Origin: Myxococcota bacterium
GTDB lineage: Bacteria > Myxococcota_A > Polyangia > Nannocystales > Nannocystaceae
Reading direction: 5' to 3'
NCBI GenBank assembly: GCA_039028615.1
Contig: JBCCHT010000005.1
Span: forward strand, 64,001-128,000
DNA length: 64,000 nucleotides
The notes beneath the pieces are model-generated. The model did not search any database. It was not told the DNA's origin and saw nothing but the letters and a program-made list of their open reading frames with translations. The position numbers and the translations under genes were made by a program. Of the stretch, positions 31,408 to 45,766 are shown piece after piece. How positions within the stretch are numbered: position 1 is the first letter of the stretch; every line of letters starts with the position of its first letter.

Positions 31408-32076
31408 ATGAGCGAGCAAGAGCAGCCCGACGAAGAGAGCGACTTCGAGTTGCTCGAGGCGTGGCGCGGGGGCGATGAGGCTGCCGGCCGCGCGCTCTTT
31501 GCTCGCTATTTCGAGTCGGTCTTCCGCTTCTTCCGCAACAAGGTCGACGACGCGGCGGAAGACCTGACCCAGCAGACCTTCATGGGCCTGGTGCAGGGCA
31601 AGGATCGCTTTCGAGGCGATTCCAGCTTTCGCACCTACGTGTTCATGATCGCCCGCAAGCGGCTGTACTCGTACCTACGCAAGGCCCAGCGCGACCAGGG
31701 CTCGGCCGCGTGGGGGGAGAGCTCGGTCGCCGACCTCGGCTTGGCTTCGCCCTCGCGGGCGGTGGCGCGGCACCAGGAGCAGCGCCTGCTGCTGCTCGCG
31801 CTGCGTCAGCTGCCCGTCGAGATGCAGGTCTCCCTCGAGCTGTTTTATTGGGAAGAGCTCACGGTGACCGAGATCGCCGAGGTGCTCGAGACCCCGGTGG
31901 GTACGGTCAAAAGCCGCATCCAGCGGGCGCGGGCGCGGCTGGACAAGGTCATCGAAGAGCTCGCGGGCTCCGAAGAGCTGCTGCGCAGCACGATGGACAA
32001 CTTCTCGTTGTGGGCTCGTGAGCTTCGCGGGCAGCTGTCGCCCCCGAGCGAGGGCGAACCCGACGGCGAGGGCTGA
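31408..32076 (+). CDS. ECF RNA polymerase sigma factor
   Basis: AEDLTQQTF, FRTYVF.IAR, region 4 'EIAEVLETPVGTVKSRIQRAR'. Confidence 0.93.
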   Translation: MSEQEQPDEESDFELLEAWRGGDEAAGRALFARYFESVFRFFRNKVDDAAEDLTQQTFMGLVQGKDRFRGDSSFRTYVFMIARKRLYSYLRKAQRDQGSAAWGESSVADLGLASPSRAVARHQEQRLLLLALRQLPVEMQVSLELFYWEELTVTEIAEVLETPVGTVKSRIQRARARLDKVIEELAGSEELLRSTMDNFSLWARELRGQLSPPSEGEPDGEG

Positions 32077-32097
32077 GCCGCCGCGCAGGTGCTCGGT

Positions 32098-32694
32098 TCA
32101 CCCGGGCAGGGCGGAGGGCCAGTAGCCGAGCCGCCCCAGCATGCGGGCCGTGATCCCCTGGTGGGTGGCATCGTGGATCTCGAACTCGAACGCGTCGGCG
32201 AGGCGGTCGATGACGTTGAAGGCGAAGCACACGTACATCGCCTCGTGGATCGCTCGCTCGTCGAGGCCGGCCTCGAGTGCGGCTTCGATGTGTTCGGGTC
32301 CGAAACTGTCGGGCTCGGTGGTCAGCCGGTACACGAGCTCGAGGGCGGCCCGCACAGGCTCCTCGATCGGCGCGGTGCGATGGTCCTCGAGCACCGCATC
32401 GACGACCGCTTGGTCGATGCCGGACACCGCAACTGCGGCGTGGTGGACGGTTCAGTACTCGCAGCGATTGGCCTTGGAGACGAACGCGGAAAACAGCTCG
32501 CACTCCGCGTCTTCCCACCGCTGGGCCTTGCGCATCGATCGTTGCAACACCTTGGCCATGGAGCGACCAAAGAGCGCGGGGCGGTAGCTGAGCGCGAGCA
32601 CGGGTCCCGGGATCGGGTCGATGATCCGACGCATCACCCAGAGCATGGCCCGCTGCACGCGGGAGTGTCCGTGGTCGACGACCGACAGCCTCAT
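32098..32694 (-). CDS. AhpD-like/carboxymuconolactone decarboxylase family selenoprotein (198 aa, Sec81)
   Basis: ORFs 32452..32694 and 32098..32427 are in one frame separated by a single TGA (32452-32454); read-through gives ELFSAFVSKANRCEY-U-TVHH, the AhpD motif ExxxxxxSxxNxCxxCxxxH; SECIS-like hairpin follows. Confidence 0.85.
32424..32441 (-). promoter_or_regulatory. Candidate bacterial SECIS element
   Basis: ACGCCGC-AGTT-GCGGTGT: 7-bp stem (one G-U) starting at the 11th nt after UGA; 4-nt loop with G at position 2. Confidence 0.75.
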
Positions 32695-33041
32695 CGGCGC
32701 GCCCTCGCTCGCTTCATGGCCTCGAGGCCTCGCTCGAATTGCCCCAAGCTTGCCCCGACCGCCGCGGCCACGGTGAACTCGTACAGCGCGTCTTCGCTGT
32801 AGCCCGCGTCGCGGAGGCGGTCGTAGTCCTCGTCGACGACCTTGTAGGCATTACGGGCGACCTTGTCGACGAGCGTCGTCAGCTCGTCGGGGATGTCACC
32901 GGGATCGCGAGGGGCCCCGGTGAACGCGGCGCTGCGATCGGCCACGGCGCGGCGCAGCGCGGGCGATGAATCTCCGTCGGCACCGAGCGCGGTGTCGACG
33001 AGCCGTCGCACGATGTCGGGGAGCGCGGTCGGGTCATCCAT
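32691..33041 (-). CDS. Small CMD/AhpD-like helical protein lacking Cys
   Basis: 'LVDKVARNAYKV.DED...LRDAGYSED.LYE.TVAAA' CMD-like helix hairpin; ATGA overlap with the selenoprotein gene. Confidence 0.75.
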   Translation of the reverse strand: MDDPTALPDIVRRLVDTALGADGDSSPALRRAVADRSAAFTGAPRDPGDIPDELTTLVDKVARNAYKVVDEDYDRLRDAGYSEDALYEFTVAAAVGASLGQFERGLEAMKRARARR

Positions 33042-33239
33042 GACCTCACGATACCGCCCCGTCGCGGTGAGAACATCGCCACTGGCTCCTGTTTCGACTC
33101 GGTGAGGATGTCGGCGTATCCCACCGTGTATGGGGTTCTCGCCGACGGTACGACGACACTATCGGGTCCGGGCTCGGGGCGTTGTCGGCGACCCACAAGT
33201 GGTGCCGGGTGAGTGCCGGCGGCCTGCCCGGGGTGGAAC

Positions 33240-35345
33240 TCAGAACGAGAACGCGGTGCCGAAGAGCACGAGCAGCGACTGGGCTCGCGCCTCTTGCGTG
33301 TCGGTCATCGTCTGCTGGGTGCCGTCGGAGACGGTGGTGCCCTGGGTGACCCCGGTGAAGGCTCGCTCGCCGAACACGGGGCGGAACTGCAGCATCAGCG
33401 AGACCCACCGACGAATGCGATAGCGGGTGTCGAGCGAGGGCGTGATGATGAAGTTGATGCGGTCCCCGGTGAGGTCTTCGTTGCTGCGGATGGGGAACGA
33501 AAACCCGAGGCCGAAGCCGGCCCCGACCTCGATGCGGCTGGTGGCGGCGACGACCAGGCCGGGCTCGAAGAACACCCGCGCCCAGCCGAAGGCCCGCAGC
33601 TGCTCGTCGGTGGTGGTCTCGGCGCCCACGTCGGAGGGCTCGACCGGCTCCTCTTCGACGAGGCGACTGCCCCAGCGGCCCAGGGTGCCGCCGACCCGCA
33701 GGTCCCAGCCGACCCGCGCCCACTTGGGGTTGCGGGCGCGGAACTGCAGGGCGAACTGGCCCAGCGCGCTGAAGTACACGGGCGGGACGTCGTCGGGGCC
33801 GAAGGTGTCCGACCAGGCGGGGCCACCCCCCGCGGCGAGGTAGAGCTTGAAGGCGGTTCGCCGGGCGGTGCGCTCGGGTCGGCCGAACTCGATGGTGCCG
33901 TTGCGGACCTCGGCCACCGCCTCGTCGTAGGGCCGGTCACCGCGGGGGCGAAAGCGGATGGGCTCACACGAGGCTCCGGGCACCTTGAGCTGGAGCGTCG
34001 GCACATGGGTGACGCCGTAGCGGTGCACTTCGCCGTCTTCGCCGAAGATCTCGACGTCGGTGACCCGGCTGCCGGGGACCTCCGTGCGCCAGGCATCGAC
34101 GGTGGTGTGCAGGTAGATCTGGTCGGCGGGCACGTAGCGGGTGAGCACCTGGCCGTTGGCGGCGAGGGTGTCCGTCCAGCGCTGGGTGGGGCGGGTCTTG
34201 GCGAAGGTGACCTCGAGCGGCAGGTCGAGGTCGAGGGCCGAGTCGTCCATGGTGCCCGGGCAGCGATAGTCGCAGCCGGTCTCGGTCACGGTGGCGCTAC
34301 AGGTGGTGCCCGTCTCGAGGGTGACGGTGGGACAGGCCTCGGCGGGGTAGATGCACTCGGGTCTTCGCCAGCTGAAGCTGACCTGCTTGAACTGCAGCTC
34401 GAAGGGGCTCGCCGGCCATCGCCCCTCCCAACGCGCCCCGAAGCGCGCCGCCGCCTTTCCGTCGTCGGTGGCGGCCAGGTCGATGTCGAGGGTGCCGACC
34501 CCGAGCGGGGCCTGGGGAATCCAGACTTGCAGCGCCCCCGTGCTGGTCAGCGCGCCGACGCAGTGCTCGACCTTCATCTGTACGCCATGGATGCGCAGCG
34601 AGATGCGGTCGCGGTCGCTGGCCTCGAGCCGGGTGCGCGGCAGGATGACCTCGACGACGTGGCAGCGAGGCGTCAGCGGCAGCAAGATCAGCTTGCGCAC
34701 GGGCTCGCCCTCGTTGGCGATGGTCTCTTCGGCTCCTCGCTCGCTGCGGGGATGCGGCAGGTAGTGGCCGCCGAGGCTACGAGCGGTGACCACGACCTGG
34801 TCGAGGTCGGCCTGGACACCGATGGTGGCGATGCCTCCGGTCAGTCGCACCGAGTCGATGGCGGGCGGCGAGCCCTCGAGGTGCTCGAGCAAGATGAACA
34901 GCGGCCGGGGTTTGCGGGCGGCCTCGGCCGCGGCGAGGCTGTCGGAGGTGCAGGCCACGTGTAGCTCGTCGGCGCGGCCCAGGCCCTCGGGGAGCTCGAC
35001 CCGCGGGCGGCAGTCGCCGATGGGATCGTTGGAGCAGCGCTGACGCGTGGACGAGGCCTCGTCGCCGCCCCACAGCGCGGGGTCGACCTGCCAGGAGCTG
35101 CGGCCCACCGCTTCCATGGCATCGGGGTGAGGGGAGAGCACTTCGCTCAGGGATTTGCGCGTGCGCGGGCTCTGGGCCTCGCTGACGACGCACAGGTGCG
35201 TGGGGACGTCGCCGGCCTCGGGCCGCAGGTCGAGGGTGACGACGCCGTACTCTTCCGCCGCGGCCACACGCGGCCACACCACCATCACCAGGACGACGAC
35301 CAGCGCCGCCCACCAAGGTCCCGAGCAGCGGCTCAGGACTCGCAT
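33240..35345 (-). CDS. Large secreted Cys-containing protein with probable C-terminal outer-membrane beta-barrel
   Basis: Signal peptide (VAAA-EE); paired Cys in N-terminal two-thirds; amphipathic beta-strands ending FGTAFSF; overlaps kinase stop. Confidence 0.7.
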   Translation of the reverse strand: MRVLSRCSGPWWAALVVVLVMVVWPRVAAAEEYGVVTLDLRPEAGDVPTHLCVVSEAQSPRTRKSLSEVLSPHPDAMEAVGRSSWQVDPALWGGDEASSTRQRCSNDPIGDCRPRVELPEGLGRADELHVACTSDSLAAAEAARKPRPLFILLEHLEGSPPAIDSVRLTGGIATIGVQADLDQVVVTARSLGGHYLPHPRSERGAEETIANEGEPVRKLILLPLTPRCHVVEVILPRTRLEASDRDRISLRIHGVQMKVEHCVGALTSTGALQVWIPQAPLGVGTLDIDLAATDDGKAAARFGARWEGRWPASPFELQFKQVSFSWRRPECIYPAEACPTVTLETGTTCSATVTETGCDYRCPGTMDDSALDLDLPLEVTFAKTRPTQRWTDTLAANGQVLTRYVPADQIYLHTTVDAWRTEVPGSRVTDVEIFGEDGEVHRYGVTHVPTLQLKVPGASCEPIRFRPRGDRPYDEAVAEVRNGTIEFGRPERTARRTAFKLYLAAGGGPAWSDTFGPDDVPPVYFSALGQFALQFRARNPKWARVGWDLRVGGTLGRWGSRLVEEEPVEPSDVGAETTTDEQLRAFGWARVFFEPGLVVAATSRIEVGAGFGLGFSFPIRSNEDLTGDRINFIITPSLDTRYRIRRWVSLMLQFRPVFGERAFTGVTQGTTVSDGTQQTMTDTQEARAQSLLVLFGTAFSF

Positions 35346-36964
35346 TGATCCTCGGTGGTCGATACGCACAGATAGTAGCGCGAGCAGTCCGAGGGGCGGA
35401 GTCCGTCCCCGGGCTGCAGCCCGGCTCGTCGGTACTCGGGCGCTTGCTGGGCGCACTCGTAGCACTGACCCTTCTTGGTCTCGACGAAGCGTTCGTGCCG
35501 ACGCTGGTGATGGAGGAAATTGAAGCGATCCTGCCGGAAGTAGCAGATTTCGGTCTTGCGCTTGCGTTTGGGGGCCTTGGTGCCGACGTCCGGGCTCGCG
35601 GTGGTGCCCTCGTCTTCGCTGGCGACGCCATCGGTTGCACCCGCCGCATCGGGTTCGGGGGCGGCGACGGCATCGGCGGCCGAGGTGGCCTCCGGGGCGG
35701 GCTCGGGCTCGGGCTCCAGCTCGGCGGGGGTCAGCGCTTTCGTGGGGGCGAGCGCGGCCGGGGCGGCGGCGGCGGAGGGATCGGCAGGCGGACGAGACTG
35801 GGCGACCAAGCTGGCCGCGTCGCTGGCCTCGGTGACGGCGGAGTCGTCGTTGCCCGCGATCCACAGCCCCATGCCGCCGAGCGAGAGCAGGGCGAGCGCA
35901 CCCATGGTCATGGCGGTGACCCGGGCCCGTCGACGTCGGCGGCGGGCGACGTTGGGATCGATGAGCGCCTCTTCGAGGCGATCGAGCAGGGGCTCGAGCC
36001 CAGGGTGGCGATCGGCGGGGTCGATGGCCAGTCCCCGCACGACCTCGGCGTGGACCCACGCGCGAACCTTGCTCTCCGACGGTGGATCGAGGACCCGGCC
36101 GTGTCGCACGCTCTTGCGGTACTCGCCGATCGAGTTGCCGGCAAAGGGCGGGTAGCCGTACAGCGCCTCGTAGAGGGCGACACAGAAGCTGAACTGATCG
36201 CTGCGGGCGTTGGCCACGGCCCCGGACTCTTGCTCGGGGGCCATGTACTTGGGCGTGCCCAGCAGGGTGCCGGTCTGGGTGAGCGTGCCCGAGGGGCCTT
36301 GCAGGTCGCCCGTGTCGCGATCGAGCTCCGATTCTTCGGAGGCGCTGTCGAGCGCGGCCGGGCCTCCGGCGAGCCCGAAGTCACCCACACGAACCCGACC
36401 GTCCGCGCCGACGAGTACGTTCTCGGGCTTGAAGTCGCGGTGGATGACGCCGGCCGCATGCGCGGCGGCCAGGCCTCGGCCCGCCTCGACGTAGCGGCGA
36501 AGAATCTCGCGCCAGGCGGGTTTTTCCTCGGTGAGCCAGTGGGCGAGGCTGCGGCCCTCCACGAACTCCATGGCGATGAACACCCCGTCCTCGACCGTGC
36601 CCACGTCGTAGACGTGGATGACGTTGGGGTGGGCCAGCCGAGCCATGGCCCGGGCTTCCCGGACCACGCGGGCCCGCGCGGTGGCCGGGTCCTTGGTGCT
36701 CGTGGTGCTCGGGTGCATGAGCTTGACCGCGACGTCGCGGGCGAGCTCGGGGTCGTGGGCGCGATAGACCACGCCCATGCCGCCGGCTCCGATGCGCCCC
36801 TCCACCCGATAGCGACCCACGCGGACCGGCTGTCGGGGCCCCGAGAACAACCGGCTGGCGATGGCGGCCCGGGCCCGACGCGCCTCGACGTCATCGCCCT
36901 GGGGGGCGGCACGGCGCAGTGGATCCCCCGTAGAGGGGGCTGAGGGCTCGATTGAAGCGCTCAC
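35333..36964 (-). CDS. Membrane-anchored Ser/Thr protein kinase with Cys-rich C-terminal domain
   Basis: GAGGMGVVY, VAVK, HRDFKPEN, DFG, GTPKYMAPE, SDQFSFCV; TM; 6-Cys tail. Confidence 0.95.
   Translation of the reverse strand: MSASIEPSAPSTGDPLRRAAPQGDDVEARRARAAIASRLFSGPRQPVRVGRYRVEGRIGAGGMGVVYRAHDPELARDVAVKLMHPSTTSTKDPATARARVVREARAMARLAHPNVIHVYDVGTVEDGVFIAMEFVEGRSLAHWLTEEKPAWREILRRYVEAGRGLAAAHAAGVIHRDFKPENVLVGADGRVRVGDFGLAGGPAALDSASEESELDRDTGDLQGPSGTLTQTGTLLGTPKYMAPEQESGAVANARSDQFSFCVALYEALYGYPPFAGNSIGEYRKSVRHGRVLDPPSESKVRAWVHAEVVRGLAIDPADRHPGLEPLLDRLEEALIDPNVARRRRRRARVTAMTMGALALLSLGGMGLWIAGNDDSAVTEASDAASLVAQSRPPADPSAAAAPAALAPTKALTPAELEPEPEPAPEATSAADAVAAPEPDAAGATDGVASEDEGTTASPDVGTKAPKRKRKTEICYFRQDRFNFLHHQRRHERFVETKKGQCYECAQQAPEYRRAGLQPGDGLRPSDCSRYYLCVSTTEDQCES

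Positions 36965-45691: not shown

Positions 45692-45766
<75 letters not shown>

Follow-up and report, generated by a model that had tools for sequence, protein, structure and literature searches.

A candidate AhpD-fold selenoprotein and its cysteine-free partner encoded by coupled genes in a Nannocystaceae genome

On the minus strand of a 64,000-nt stretch of DNA from a Myxococcota bacterium of the family Nannocystaceae (assembly GCA_039028615.1, contig JBCCHT010000005.1, positions 64,001 to 128,000 of the forward strand; hereafter ‘the window’, numbered from its first letter), a small helical protein is encoded directly upstream of an AhpD-like enzyme whose frame contains a TGA. An earlier note on this DNA, made without database searches, had proposed that the TGA specifies selenocysteine (Sec, U) with the help of a downstream selenocysteine insertion sequence (SECIS), and that the upstream protein is a structural partner of the enzyme. 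Here, we followed up this proposal computationally. The features of the locus are the following:

32691..33041, minus strand: partner gene, encoding 116 aa with 0 Cys, all-helical and without a Pfam family (open reading frame and translation)
32098..32694, minus strand: gene of the predicted AhpD/CMD-fold selenoprotein, 198 codons including UGA-81, plus a terminal TGA
32452..32454, minus strand: UGA codon predicted to be read as Sec (U81), second position of the C-x-x-C/U redox pair
32424..32441, minus strand: SECIS-like hairpin, 7-bp stem and loop AGUU (folding, covariation)
32440..32499, minus strand: catalytic motif codons E66-x11-C78-x2-U81-x3-H85 (sequence)

The 116-aa open reading frame (ORF) upstream of the enzyme, free of Cys, was found as the earlier note had described it, at 33041..32691, and its stop codon TGA overlaps the ATG of the enzyme gene in the tetranucleotide ATGA at 32694-32691. 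Under translation table 11 the enzyme frame is broken at the TGA at 32454-32452 into an 80-aa and a 109-aa ORF. Translation of 32694..32101 with TGA read as U yields 198 residues with U81 as the sole odd codon, and a second TGA (32100-32098) closes the frame. At the motif the minus strand reads AAT CGC TGC GAG TAC TGA ACC GTC CAC CAC, from which it can be read directly that the lone in-frame TGA sits on the second Cys of an AhpD motif. Both the complete motif (E66-x6-S73-x2-N76-x-C78-E-Y-U81-T-V-H-H85) and, farther on, the C-terminal FNVIDRLAD announced in the earlier note are present in this translation. E-x11-C-x2-C-x3-H is the catalytic relay of AhpD, and E66, C78, C/U81 and H85 are invariant in our alignment of the clade (alignment A2).

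The TGA is conserved at the same position in other genomes, as we observed by two routes. In 61 related genomes (E<=1e-10) matches were obtained in 15 genomes; 22 of the 23 matches contain exactly one TGA and one contains none, and every TGA is found at the fourth position of C-x-x-U, the exception being locus L032, which has C-S-F-C. In the second, independent route the partner protein was searched against a 401-genome sample of the phylum, giving a match in 24 genomes. At 22 of the 23 loci from other genomes the enzyme adjoins the partner, 20 times with C-x-x-TGA and twice with C-x-x-C. A locus search with the single enzyme protein gave 6 loci. The same gene pair was found with a TGA in a metagenome-assembled genome labelled ‘Myxococcales bacterium’ and in a Cys form (C-P-F-C) in Labedaea rhizosphaerae, a member of the Actinomycetota (L044). 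When each locus is counted once, 37 of 40 partner-associated enzymes are Sec (TGA) forms and 3 of 40 are Cys forms, and the frame is kept on both sides of the TGA across relatives at 32-65% identity. The few Cys counterparts, i.e. those of loci L032, L044, L059 and L068 and of the full-length proteins P0037-39 and P0043, occupy the very column of U81. The recurrence of the same TGA in related genomes excludes a sequencing error.

The gene is also mis-called by standard annotation, as the earlier note had anticipated. The six closest relatives in a large protein collection (52-74% identity) are present only as C-terminal fragments of 109-117 aa, which indicates that annotation pipelines split the gene, and all full-length database matches (193-199 aa, 32-41% identity) are CxxC proteins. 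The false start in the window, at 32427 on the minus strand, is a GTG that in truth encodes Val, within the 3' arm of the hairpin, and the six relatives share this artefact.

The Cys forms showed some features of their own. The Cys pair of the actinobacterium (L044) is sister, with support 100/100, to the Cys pair of L068, whose genome belongs to the window's own class, which suggests that the Cys version may have been transferred between phyla. In two of three Cys-form loci an ArsR-type helix-turn-helix gene lies just upstream (L044:1356-1700 and L059:654-980), followed in L059 by an AHSA1/SRPBCC-type gene; no such ArsR-type neighbour was seen among the Sec-form loci scanned.

The host genome (12.27 Mb in 94 contigs, 96.66% complete) encodes the complete machinery for Sec decoding. 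We identified selA (402.7 bits), selB (280.6 bits, rising to 308.5 when its C-terminal piece is included) and selD (385.4 bits), each exceeding its curated cut-off, as well as a tRNA-Sec (selC; 68.6 bits, above its cut-off) with the anticodon tca according to ARAGORN. Global reassignment of TGA was ruled out, given that TGA ends 21 of the 27 gene-like ORFs of the window and both genes of the pair. All four AhpD-type matches in the host genome carry a single in-frame TGA and are thus Sec forms. Besides the enzyme studied here, these are a 334-aa fusion of enzyme and partner domain with its TGA at CSFU (C21, L020:1414-2415) and two classical TIGR01926 forms with CGYU and CRYU (C2, L021:1486-2037, minus strand; C33, L022:1345-1947).

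The hairpin, ACGCCGC-AGUU-GCGGUGU (32441-32424, 18 nt), starts at the 11th nt after the UGA and has G as the second letter of its loop, just as described before, and it proved to be conserved with covariation. It lies inside the codons for H-A-A-V-A-V and is an element of the predicted minimum free energy structure, its 18 nt alone folding at -10.6 kcal/mol; a conserved core of 6 bp (32440-32435 with 32430-32425) encloses the loop AGUU (32434-32431). We aligned 45 nt from the TGA, at first for 18 Sec forms and then for 37 (36 partner-associated ones plus L033), and checked L043 separately. Across the 37 Sec forms, pairing is intact in 99.5% of the 222 cells of the core (columns 15-20 with 25-30); two core pairs are invariant, and in four of the six both partners have changed, which gives 29 such cells. 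Covariation scored 0.377, versus 0.151 in shuffles, of which 0 in 500 reach 0.377, and sliding the 3' arm gave at most 0.127. At the level of codons, amino-acid pairs switch together, namely GCC..GCG (Ala/Ala), ACC..GUG (Thr/Val), GGC..UCG (Gly/Ser) and UCC..GAG (Ser/Glu), and a synonymous covarying pair, GCU..GCA, is also seen. Within the loop G22 and U23 are invariant, while positions 21 and 24, both synonymous third positions, are G..C in 32 sequences and A..U in 5 and are never mixed, the five A..U cases possibly coming from only one or two events. The stem of 6-7 bp is continuous in all 37 sequences, and in L043 six of six core pairs are formed. The four Cys forms have 3, 4, 3 and 4 of the six pairs and other loop letters.

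In PMC1088965 the criterion for a bacterial SECIS is a small apical loop containing G, and such a loop is found here just downstream of the UGA. PMC8659212, a review, describes the E. coli element as an upper stem-loop (nt 15-31) placed 11 nt from the UGA, whose loop carries G23/U24, and names a bulged U17 as a SelB contact. Measured against these two descriptions, the likeness to the E. coli fdhF SECIS and to the general bacterial model that the earlier note had claimed holds for the position and for the loop G and U (stem-loop at nt 14/15-30/31, invariant G22 and U23) but does not extend to the bulged U: here the 5' arm has no bulged U, there is no conserved lower stem and the loop is closed by the covarying G..C or A..U pair. 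A different hairpin was observed ~17-45 nt after the TGA of solo TIGR01926-type genes (L021, L034 and L035), with a later start and the form GGACCUC - CGGGCU/CGGGUC - GAGGUCC. As solo and partner-associated genes differ in their hairpins, one genome serves at least two SECIS shapes.

The TGA=U product belongs to the CMD family (Pfam PF02627, 28.2 bits versus a cut-off of 23) and was also positive in the AhpD-core fold test. The nearest NCBIfam family is TIGR01926, ‘peroxidase-related enzyme’ (1.8e-18, 67.0 bits versus a cut-off of 81.8), a cut-off that among relatives of the clade is passed by L028 (84.4) and L040 (103.4) and failed by L041 (60.5). An AlphaFold model of the enzyme has a mean predicted local distance difference test score (pLDDT) of 80.9, its N-terminal 50 residues being poorly modelled when the chain is taken alone (pLDDT 38-69). 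Among solved structures, sequence matches by hmmsearch range from 4.1e-26 to 5e-19 (6k40 4.1e-26, 3c1l 1.5e-22), and the best Foldseek matches are 2pfx, 3c1l, 2oyo, 2prr and 6k40, with template modelling (TM) scores of 0.63-0.69; the debrominase Bmp8 (6ohi, 6ohj) is a weaker match (sequence 4.3e-06, Foldseek 1.3e-04). We infer that the enzyme would be a selenol/thiol redox protein in which Sec replaces the second Cys; the more specific designation ‘peroxidase/reductase’ given to it before follows from family membership only.

The two-gene pair is conserved as well, as seen above for the loci found through the partner. In every one of the 11 split loci the partner lies directly upstream of the enzyme, its stop codon either overlapping the start of the enzyme gene or lying within a few nt of it. 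In all six members of a paralogous clade (clade B), one of them in the host genome, the partner domain is instead fused to the C-terminus of the enzyme. The tree unites the partner-associated enzymes in a single clade (40 rows, support 94/94), apart from 10 solo forms, and both the fused forms (core support 99/91) and the Cys forms are nested within it. Two loci depart from the common arrangement. L069, with the partner at 1501-1677 on the minus strand, is the sole partner-profile match without an AhpD-type gene within 1.5 kb; the match, possibly a remnant, lies in an open frame of only 87 aa. At L051 the enzyme (857-1414) precedes the partner (1501-1809) in a different frame with a TGA between them, and this locus could represent either the fused form split in two or a fusion that has suffered a frameshift.

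The complex predicted for the naturally occurring Cys-form pair of L044 has an interaction prediction score from aligned errors (ipSAE) of 0.96, the best of 3 controls giving 0.00; among solved complexes 116 of 157 reach that mark, and among mismatched pairs 2 of 215, counts that are rough when alignments are user-supplied. At least 98% of contacts are common to the three runs, and the pLDDT of the partner is at least 92. The predicted interface comprises ~160 contacts and involves residues 2-6 and 38-57 of the enzyme, the N-x-C turn (77-79) and the helix 157-171, so that the N-terminal segment, poorly modelled alone, falls in the interface. The model of the fused paralog has a pLDDT of 83.9 and a predicted TM score of 0.86. 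A stable complex of enzyme and partner seems rather probable, and the earlier suggestion that the partner may be a structural subunit gains indirect support from the adjacency of the genes, from the fusion in paralogs and from the predicted complex of an ortholog pair in its Cys form.

What the partner itself is can be said less firmly. It has no match in Pfam and only faint matches in NCBIfam. Its close homologs (30 proteins of 91-127 aa) have 16 invariant columns and no conserved Cys, and a full HMMER scan yielded 1,656 cluster representatives with E<=1e-3 (981 with E<=1e-10), most of them 100-130 aa long. Atlas clusters of partner look-alikes are unnamed, come from several phyla and are to be taken as leads only. 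With hhalign, residues 50-104 of the partner align with residues 108-165 of the enzyme (probability 50%, E 1.7e-4), and with tblastn the partner aligns to the C-terminal half of a solo AhpD-like gene (E 0.010). When the partner profile was compared with the PDB, the top matches were designed helical repeat proteins, which we set aside as compositional, and the AhpD-type structures 3c1l, 2oyo and 6k40 matched weakly (0.0037-0.043). It is plausible that the partner is a degenerate copy of the C-terminal helices of the AhpD fold; the label ‘CMD-like’ given to it earlier can be kept in the sense of a weak similarity.

AhpD-like selenoproteins with a CxxU motif are known, as the earlier note had stated, but they are not little-studied: 27 sequences are reported from the Sargasso Sea in 2005 (PMC1088965), 299 selenoproteins of AhpD-like 1 and 70 of AhpD-like 2, among the most abundant families, from the Global Ocean Sampling data in 2008 (PMC2398784), and a review table of 2026 lists TIGR01926, PF02627, NF041238 and NF041047 forms (PMC13188914). 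The window enzyme has the fold of this class (COG2128/TIGR01926/PF02627) and its CxxU motif, in which Sec takes the second position, and in both a SECIS whose small apical loop contains G follows downstream. It differs from the solo TIGR01926 forms in its separate clade (94/94), its N-terminal segment, its SECIS and its obligatory partner gene. A parallel in domain order is NF041238 (AhpD_rel_CFYUT, ‘alkylhydroperoxidase-related (seleno)protein’, the ‘hypothetical protein 1’ of the Sargasso Sea), a two-part profile of 357 positions. The enzyme corresponds to its C-terminal part (214-348) and the partner, faintly, to its N-terminal part (46-126), in the same order as the genes here, with CEYUT in the window enzyme in place of CFYUT; unlike in NF041238, the parts are separate genes here, and the scores are low (38.7 versus a cut-off of 175 for the enzyme, 13.1 bits and E 0.041 for the partner).

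Other relatives are more distant. Mycobacterium tuberculosis AhpD (TIGR00777) is a one-chain enzyme that acts together with AhpC and carries Cys in place of Sec; the E-x11-C-x2-C-x3-H relay is common to both, but the enzyme scores 12.5 bits against a TIGR00777 cut-off of 191.95 and the Foldseek match to 1me5 is weak (E 0.32). The best sequence and fold matches, 6k40 (D. radiodurans), 3c1l (Mlr4105), 2oyo, 2pfx and 2prr, are all Cys proteins in multi-copy one-chain crystals with no partner subunit. The names of TIGR04030 and TIGR04029 (Avi_7169 alkylhydroperoxidase domain and Avi_7170 CMD domain, which we take to be adjacent genes) suggest a similar pairing of a catalytic with a second protein, but this is a different pair, the enzyme scoring 39.3 versus 233.15 and the partner having no TIGR04029 match at E<=1 (cut-off 100.75). 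Finally, the fused paralog aligns over its full length with Sestrin2 (5dj4, 5cuf and 5t0n; query-normalised TM score 0.58-0.63), in which a catalytic-type lobe is likewise followed by a helical lobe; given a root-mean-square deviation of ~14 A, an identity of ~12% and a partner no larger than about half a lobe, we take this as an analogy only. Neither the partner nor a two-subunit AhpD-type selenoenzyme was found described in the literature searched, which did not extend to most subscription journals or to supplements. The class is already known, and the two-subunit or fused architecture and the partner family appear to be undescribed.

In the surroundings of the pair, a large protein with a signal-peptide-like N-terminus and without a Pfam match is encoded upstream (33240-35300, minus strand), followed farther upstream by a Ser/Thr protein kinase (35333-36964, minus strand), and from the other side the gene of an extracytoplasmic function (ECF) sigma factor (31408-32076, plus strand) runs towards the 3' end of the pair. 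None of these three recurs beside the pair in other genomes, and no recurring neighbour family was found among 60 flanking ORFs scanned from 28 loci. A scan of 31800-33500 for promoters and terminators gave 0 sites. The window's sole Rfam match at the gathering score is an ordinary tRNA gene at 45692-45765 on the plus strand.

Taken together, we consider it likely that the locus is a two-gene operon encoding a Sec-dependent thiol/selenol oxidoreductase of the AhpD fold and a non-catalytic partner, and very likely, judging from the comparison of sequences, that UGA-81 is decoded as Sec. If UGA-81 acted as a terminator, the products would be an 80-aa peptide and a separate 109-aa protein starting from the GTG at 32427, and it is indeed this 109-aa product that gene callers yield for the window and for six relatives. 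Such a split would separate C78 from H85 within the redox motif, its start codon belongs to the 3' arm of a conserved hairpin, and frame and motif are kept across the TGA in 37 of 40 homologs, with Cys in the other 3, in a setting with the full Sec machinery; we regard termination as highly improbable. The idea that the TGA arose through faulty sequencing or assembly, or through a nonsense mutation that recently created a pseudogene, has nothing in its favour beyond the stop codon itself and is refuted by conservation, the same TGA being present in dozens of genomes at 32-65% identity, which leaves its probability close to nil. A contig built separately from a public marine metagenome run also covers 32050-33100 with 0 differences in 1,051 positions at a depth of 16.3, though this run may be the source sample, in which case the agreement is not independent. 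It is the only run listed as containing this DNA, and no RNA data set is listed for it. A different kind of alternative accepts the selenoprotein and sees in the partner a transient accessory, i.e. a maturation factor, substrate carrier, regulator or reductant adaptor. This would suit a protein without Cys or a recognisable catalytic motif, and the complex model comes from an ortholog pair; the covalent fusion of partner and enzyme in a nested clade, the tight translational coupling and a predicted interface of such extent, including the active-site turn, make a purely transient role improbable. Somewhat unlikely, in our estimate, is a Sec enzyme with chemistry other than peroxide reduction, either a Bmp8-type reductive dehalogenase or a dedicated disulfide or selenenylsulfide reductase with one client. 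In its favour, Bmp8 turns up in both the sequence and the fold comparison, peroxidase genes, whether of the AhpC type or another, are absent from the conserved neighbours and the clade stands apart from the solo TIGR01926 clade; against it, the best matches are AhpD-type ‘peroxidase-related’ proteins and the AhpD relay is complete.

Several observations weigh against the reading as a Sec-dependent enzyme with a partner subunit. The folding energy of the hairpin is undistinctive in DNA of ~70% G+C (z = -1.13, with 24 of 200 shuffles as stable), so that the case for it rests on the comparison between genomes. The hairpin is short and, lacking the bulged U, misses a feature of E. coli-type SECIS elements, and at the gathering score Rfam reports no SECIS family in the window and nothing matching the region. 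Part of the conservation of the hairpin, including the loop G-U, which belongs to a Val codon, could act at the protein level, as its codons specify a conserved H-x-A-V-A, a peptide that is partly kept in three of the four Cys forms. The enzyme stays under every curated NCBIfam cut-off, e.g. those of TIGR01926 and NF041238, and the kinship of the partner to the AhpD fold, at an hhalign probability of 50%, is weak. The pair that was modelled is an ortholog ~35% identical to the window pair and not the window pair itself, and a split domain can pass a complex prediction through its likeness to solved folds. Lastly, flanking genes vary between loci, and the context thus gives no clue to the substrate.

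If the locus is indeed an operon for a Sec-dependent enzyme and its partner, decoding would proceed by SelB binding, together with Sec-tRNA(Sec), to the hairpin 11 nt downstream, such that UGA-81 is recoded as Sec; the recognised element would be a stem of 6-7 bp with a loop N-G-U-N'. C78-x-x-U81 would form the redox pair, flanked by E66 and H85 in the AhpD arrangement with Sec at the second Cys position, and, by analogy with the family, a hydroperoxide or a disulfide or sulfenate may be reduced through cycling between selenol/thiol and selenenylsulfide. We hold peroxide as the substrate to be less probable than either Sec decoding or a stable complex with the partner. The partner, translationally coupled to the enzyme, would bind it as a stoichiometric subunit, packing on its N-terminal segment, the active-site turn and the FN..R..AD helix.

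These findings do not overturn current views, and to the selenoprotein field the enzyme as such would come as no surprise. They do indicate that the clade is mis-called in public protein sets and that the active-site half of the enzyme is invisible to protein-based surveys. The locus also provides a compact SECIS example in which RNA and protein are constrained together, with amino-acid pairs and synonymous sites covarying and the pairing decaying in the Cys forms. The partner, which has no Pfam or NCBIfam model and occurs almost one-to-one with a Sec or Cys AhpD-type enzyme, leads us to predict a hetero-oligomer in a superfamily of homo-oligomers. More tentatively, and with doubt prevailing, the pair may be an obligate heterodimeric selenoenzyme, the first two-subunit member of the AhpD/CMD group, in which the partner, as a degenerate half-domain, completes the active site, controls access to it and determines the substrate. 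If this were true, the chemistry might be other than peroxide reduction, e.g. reductive dehalogenation, the two-lobed architecture would parallel that of the sestrins, and the partner family, with its at least 1,656 cluster representatives, would mark a distinct redox system.

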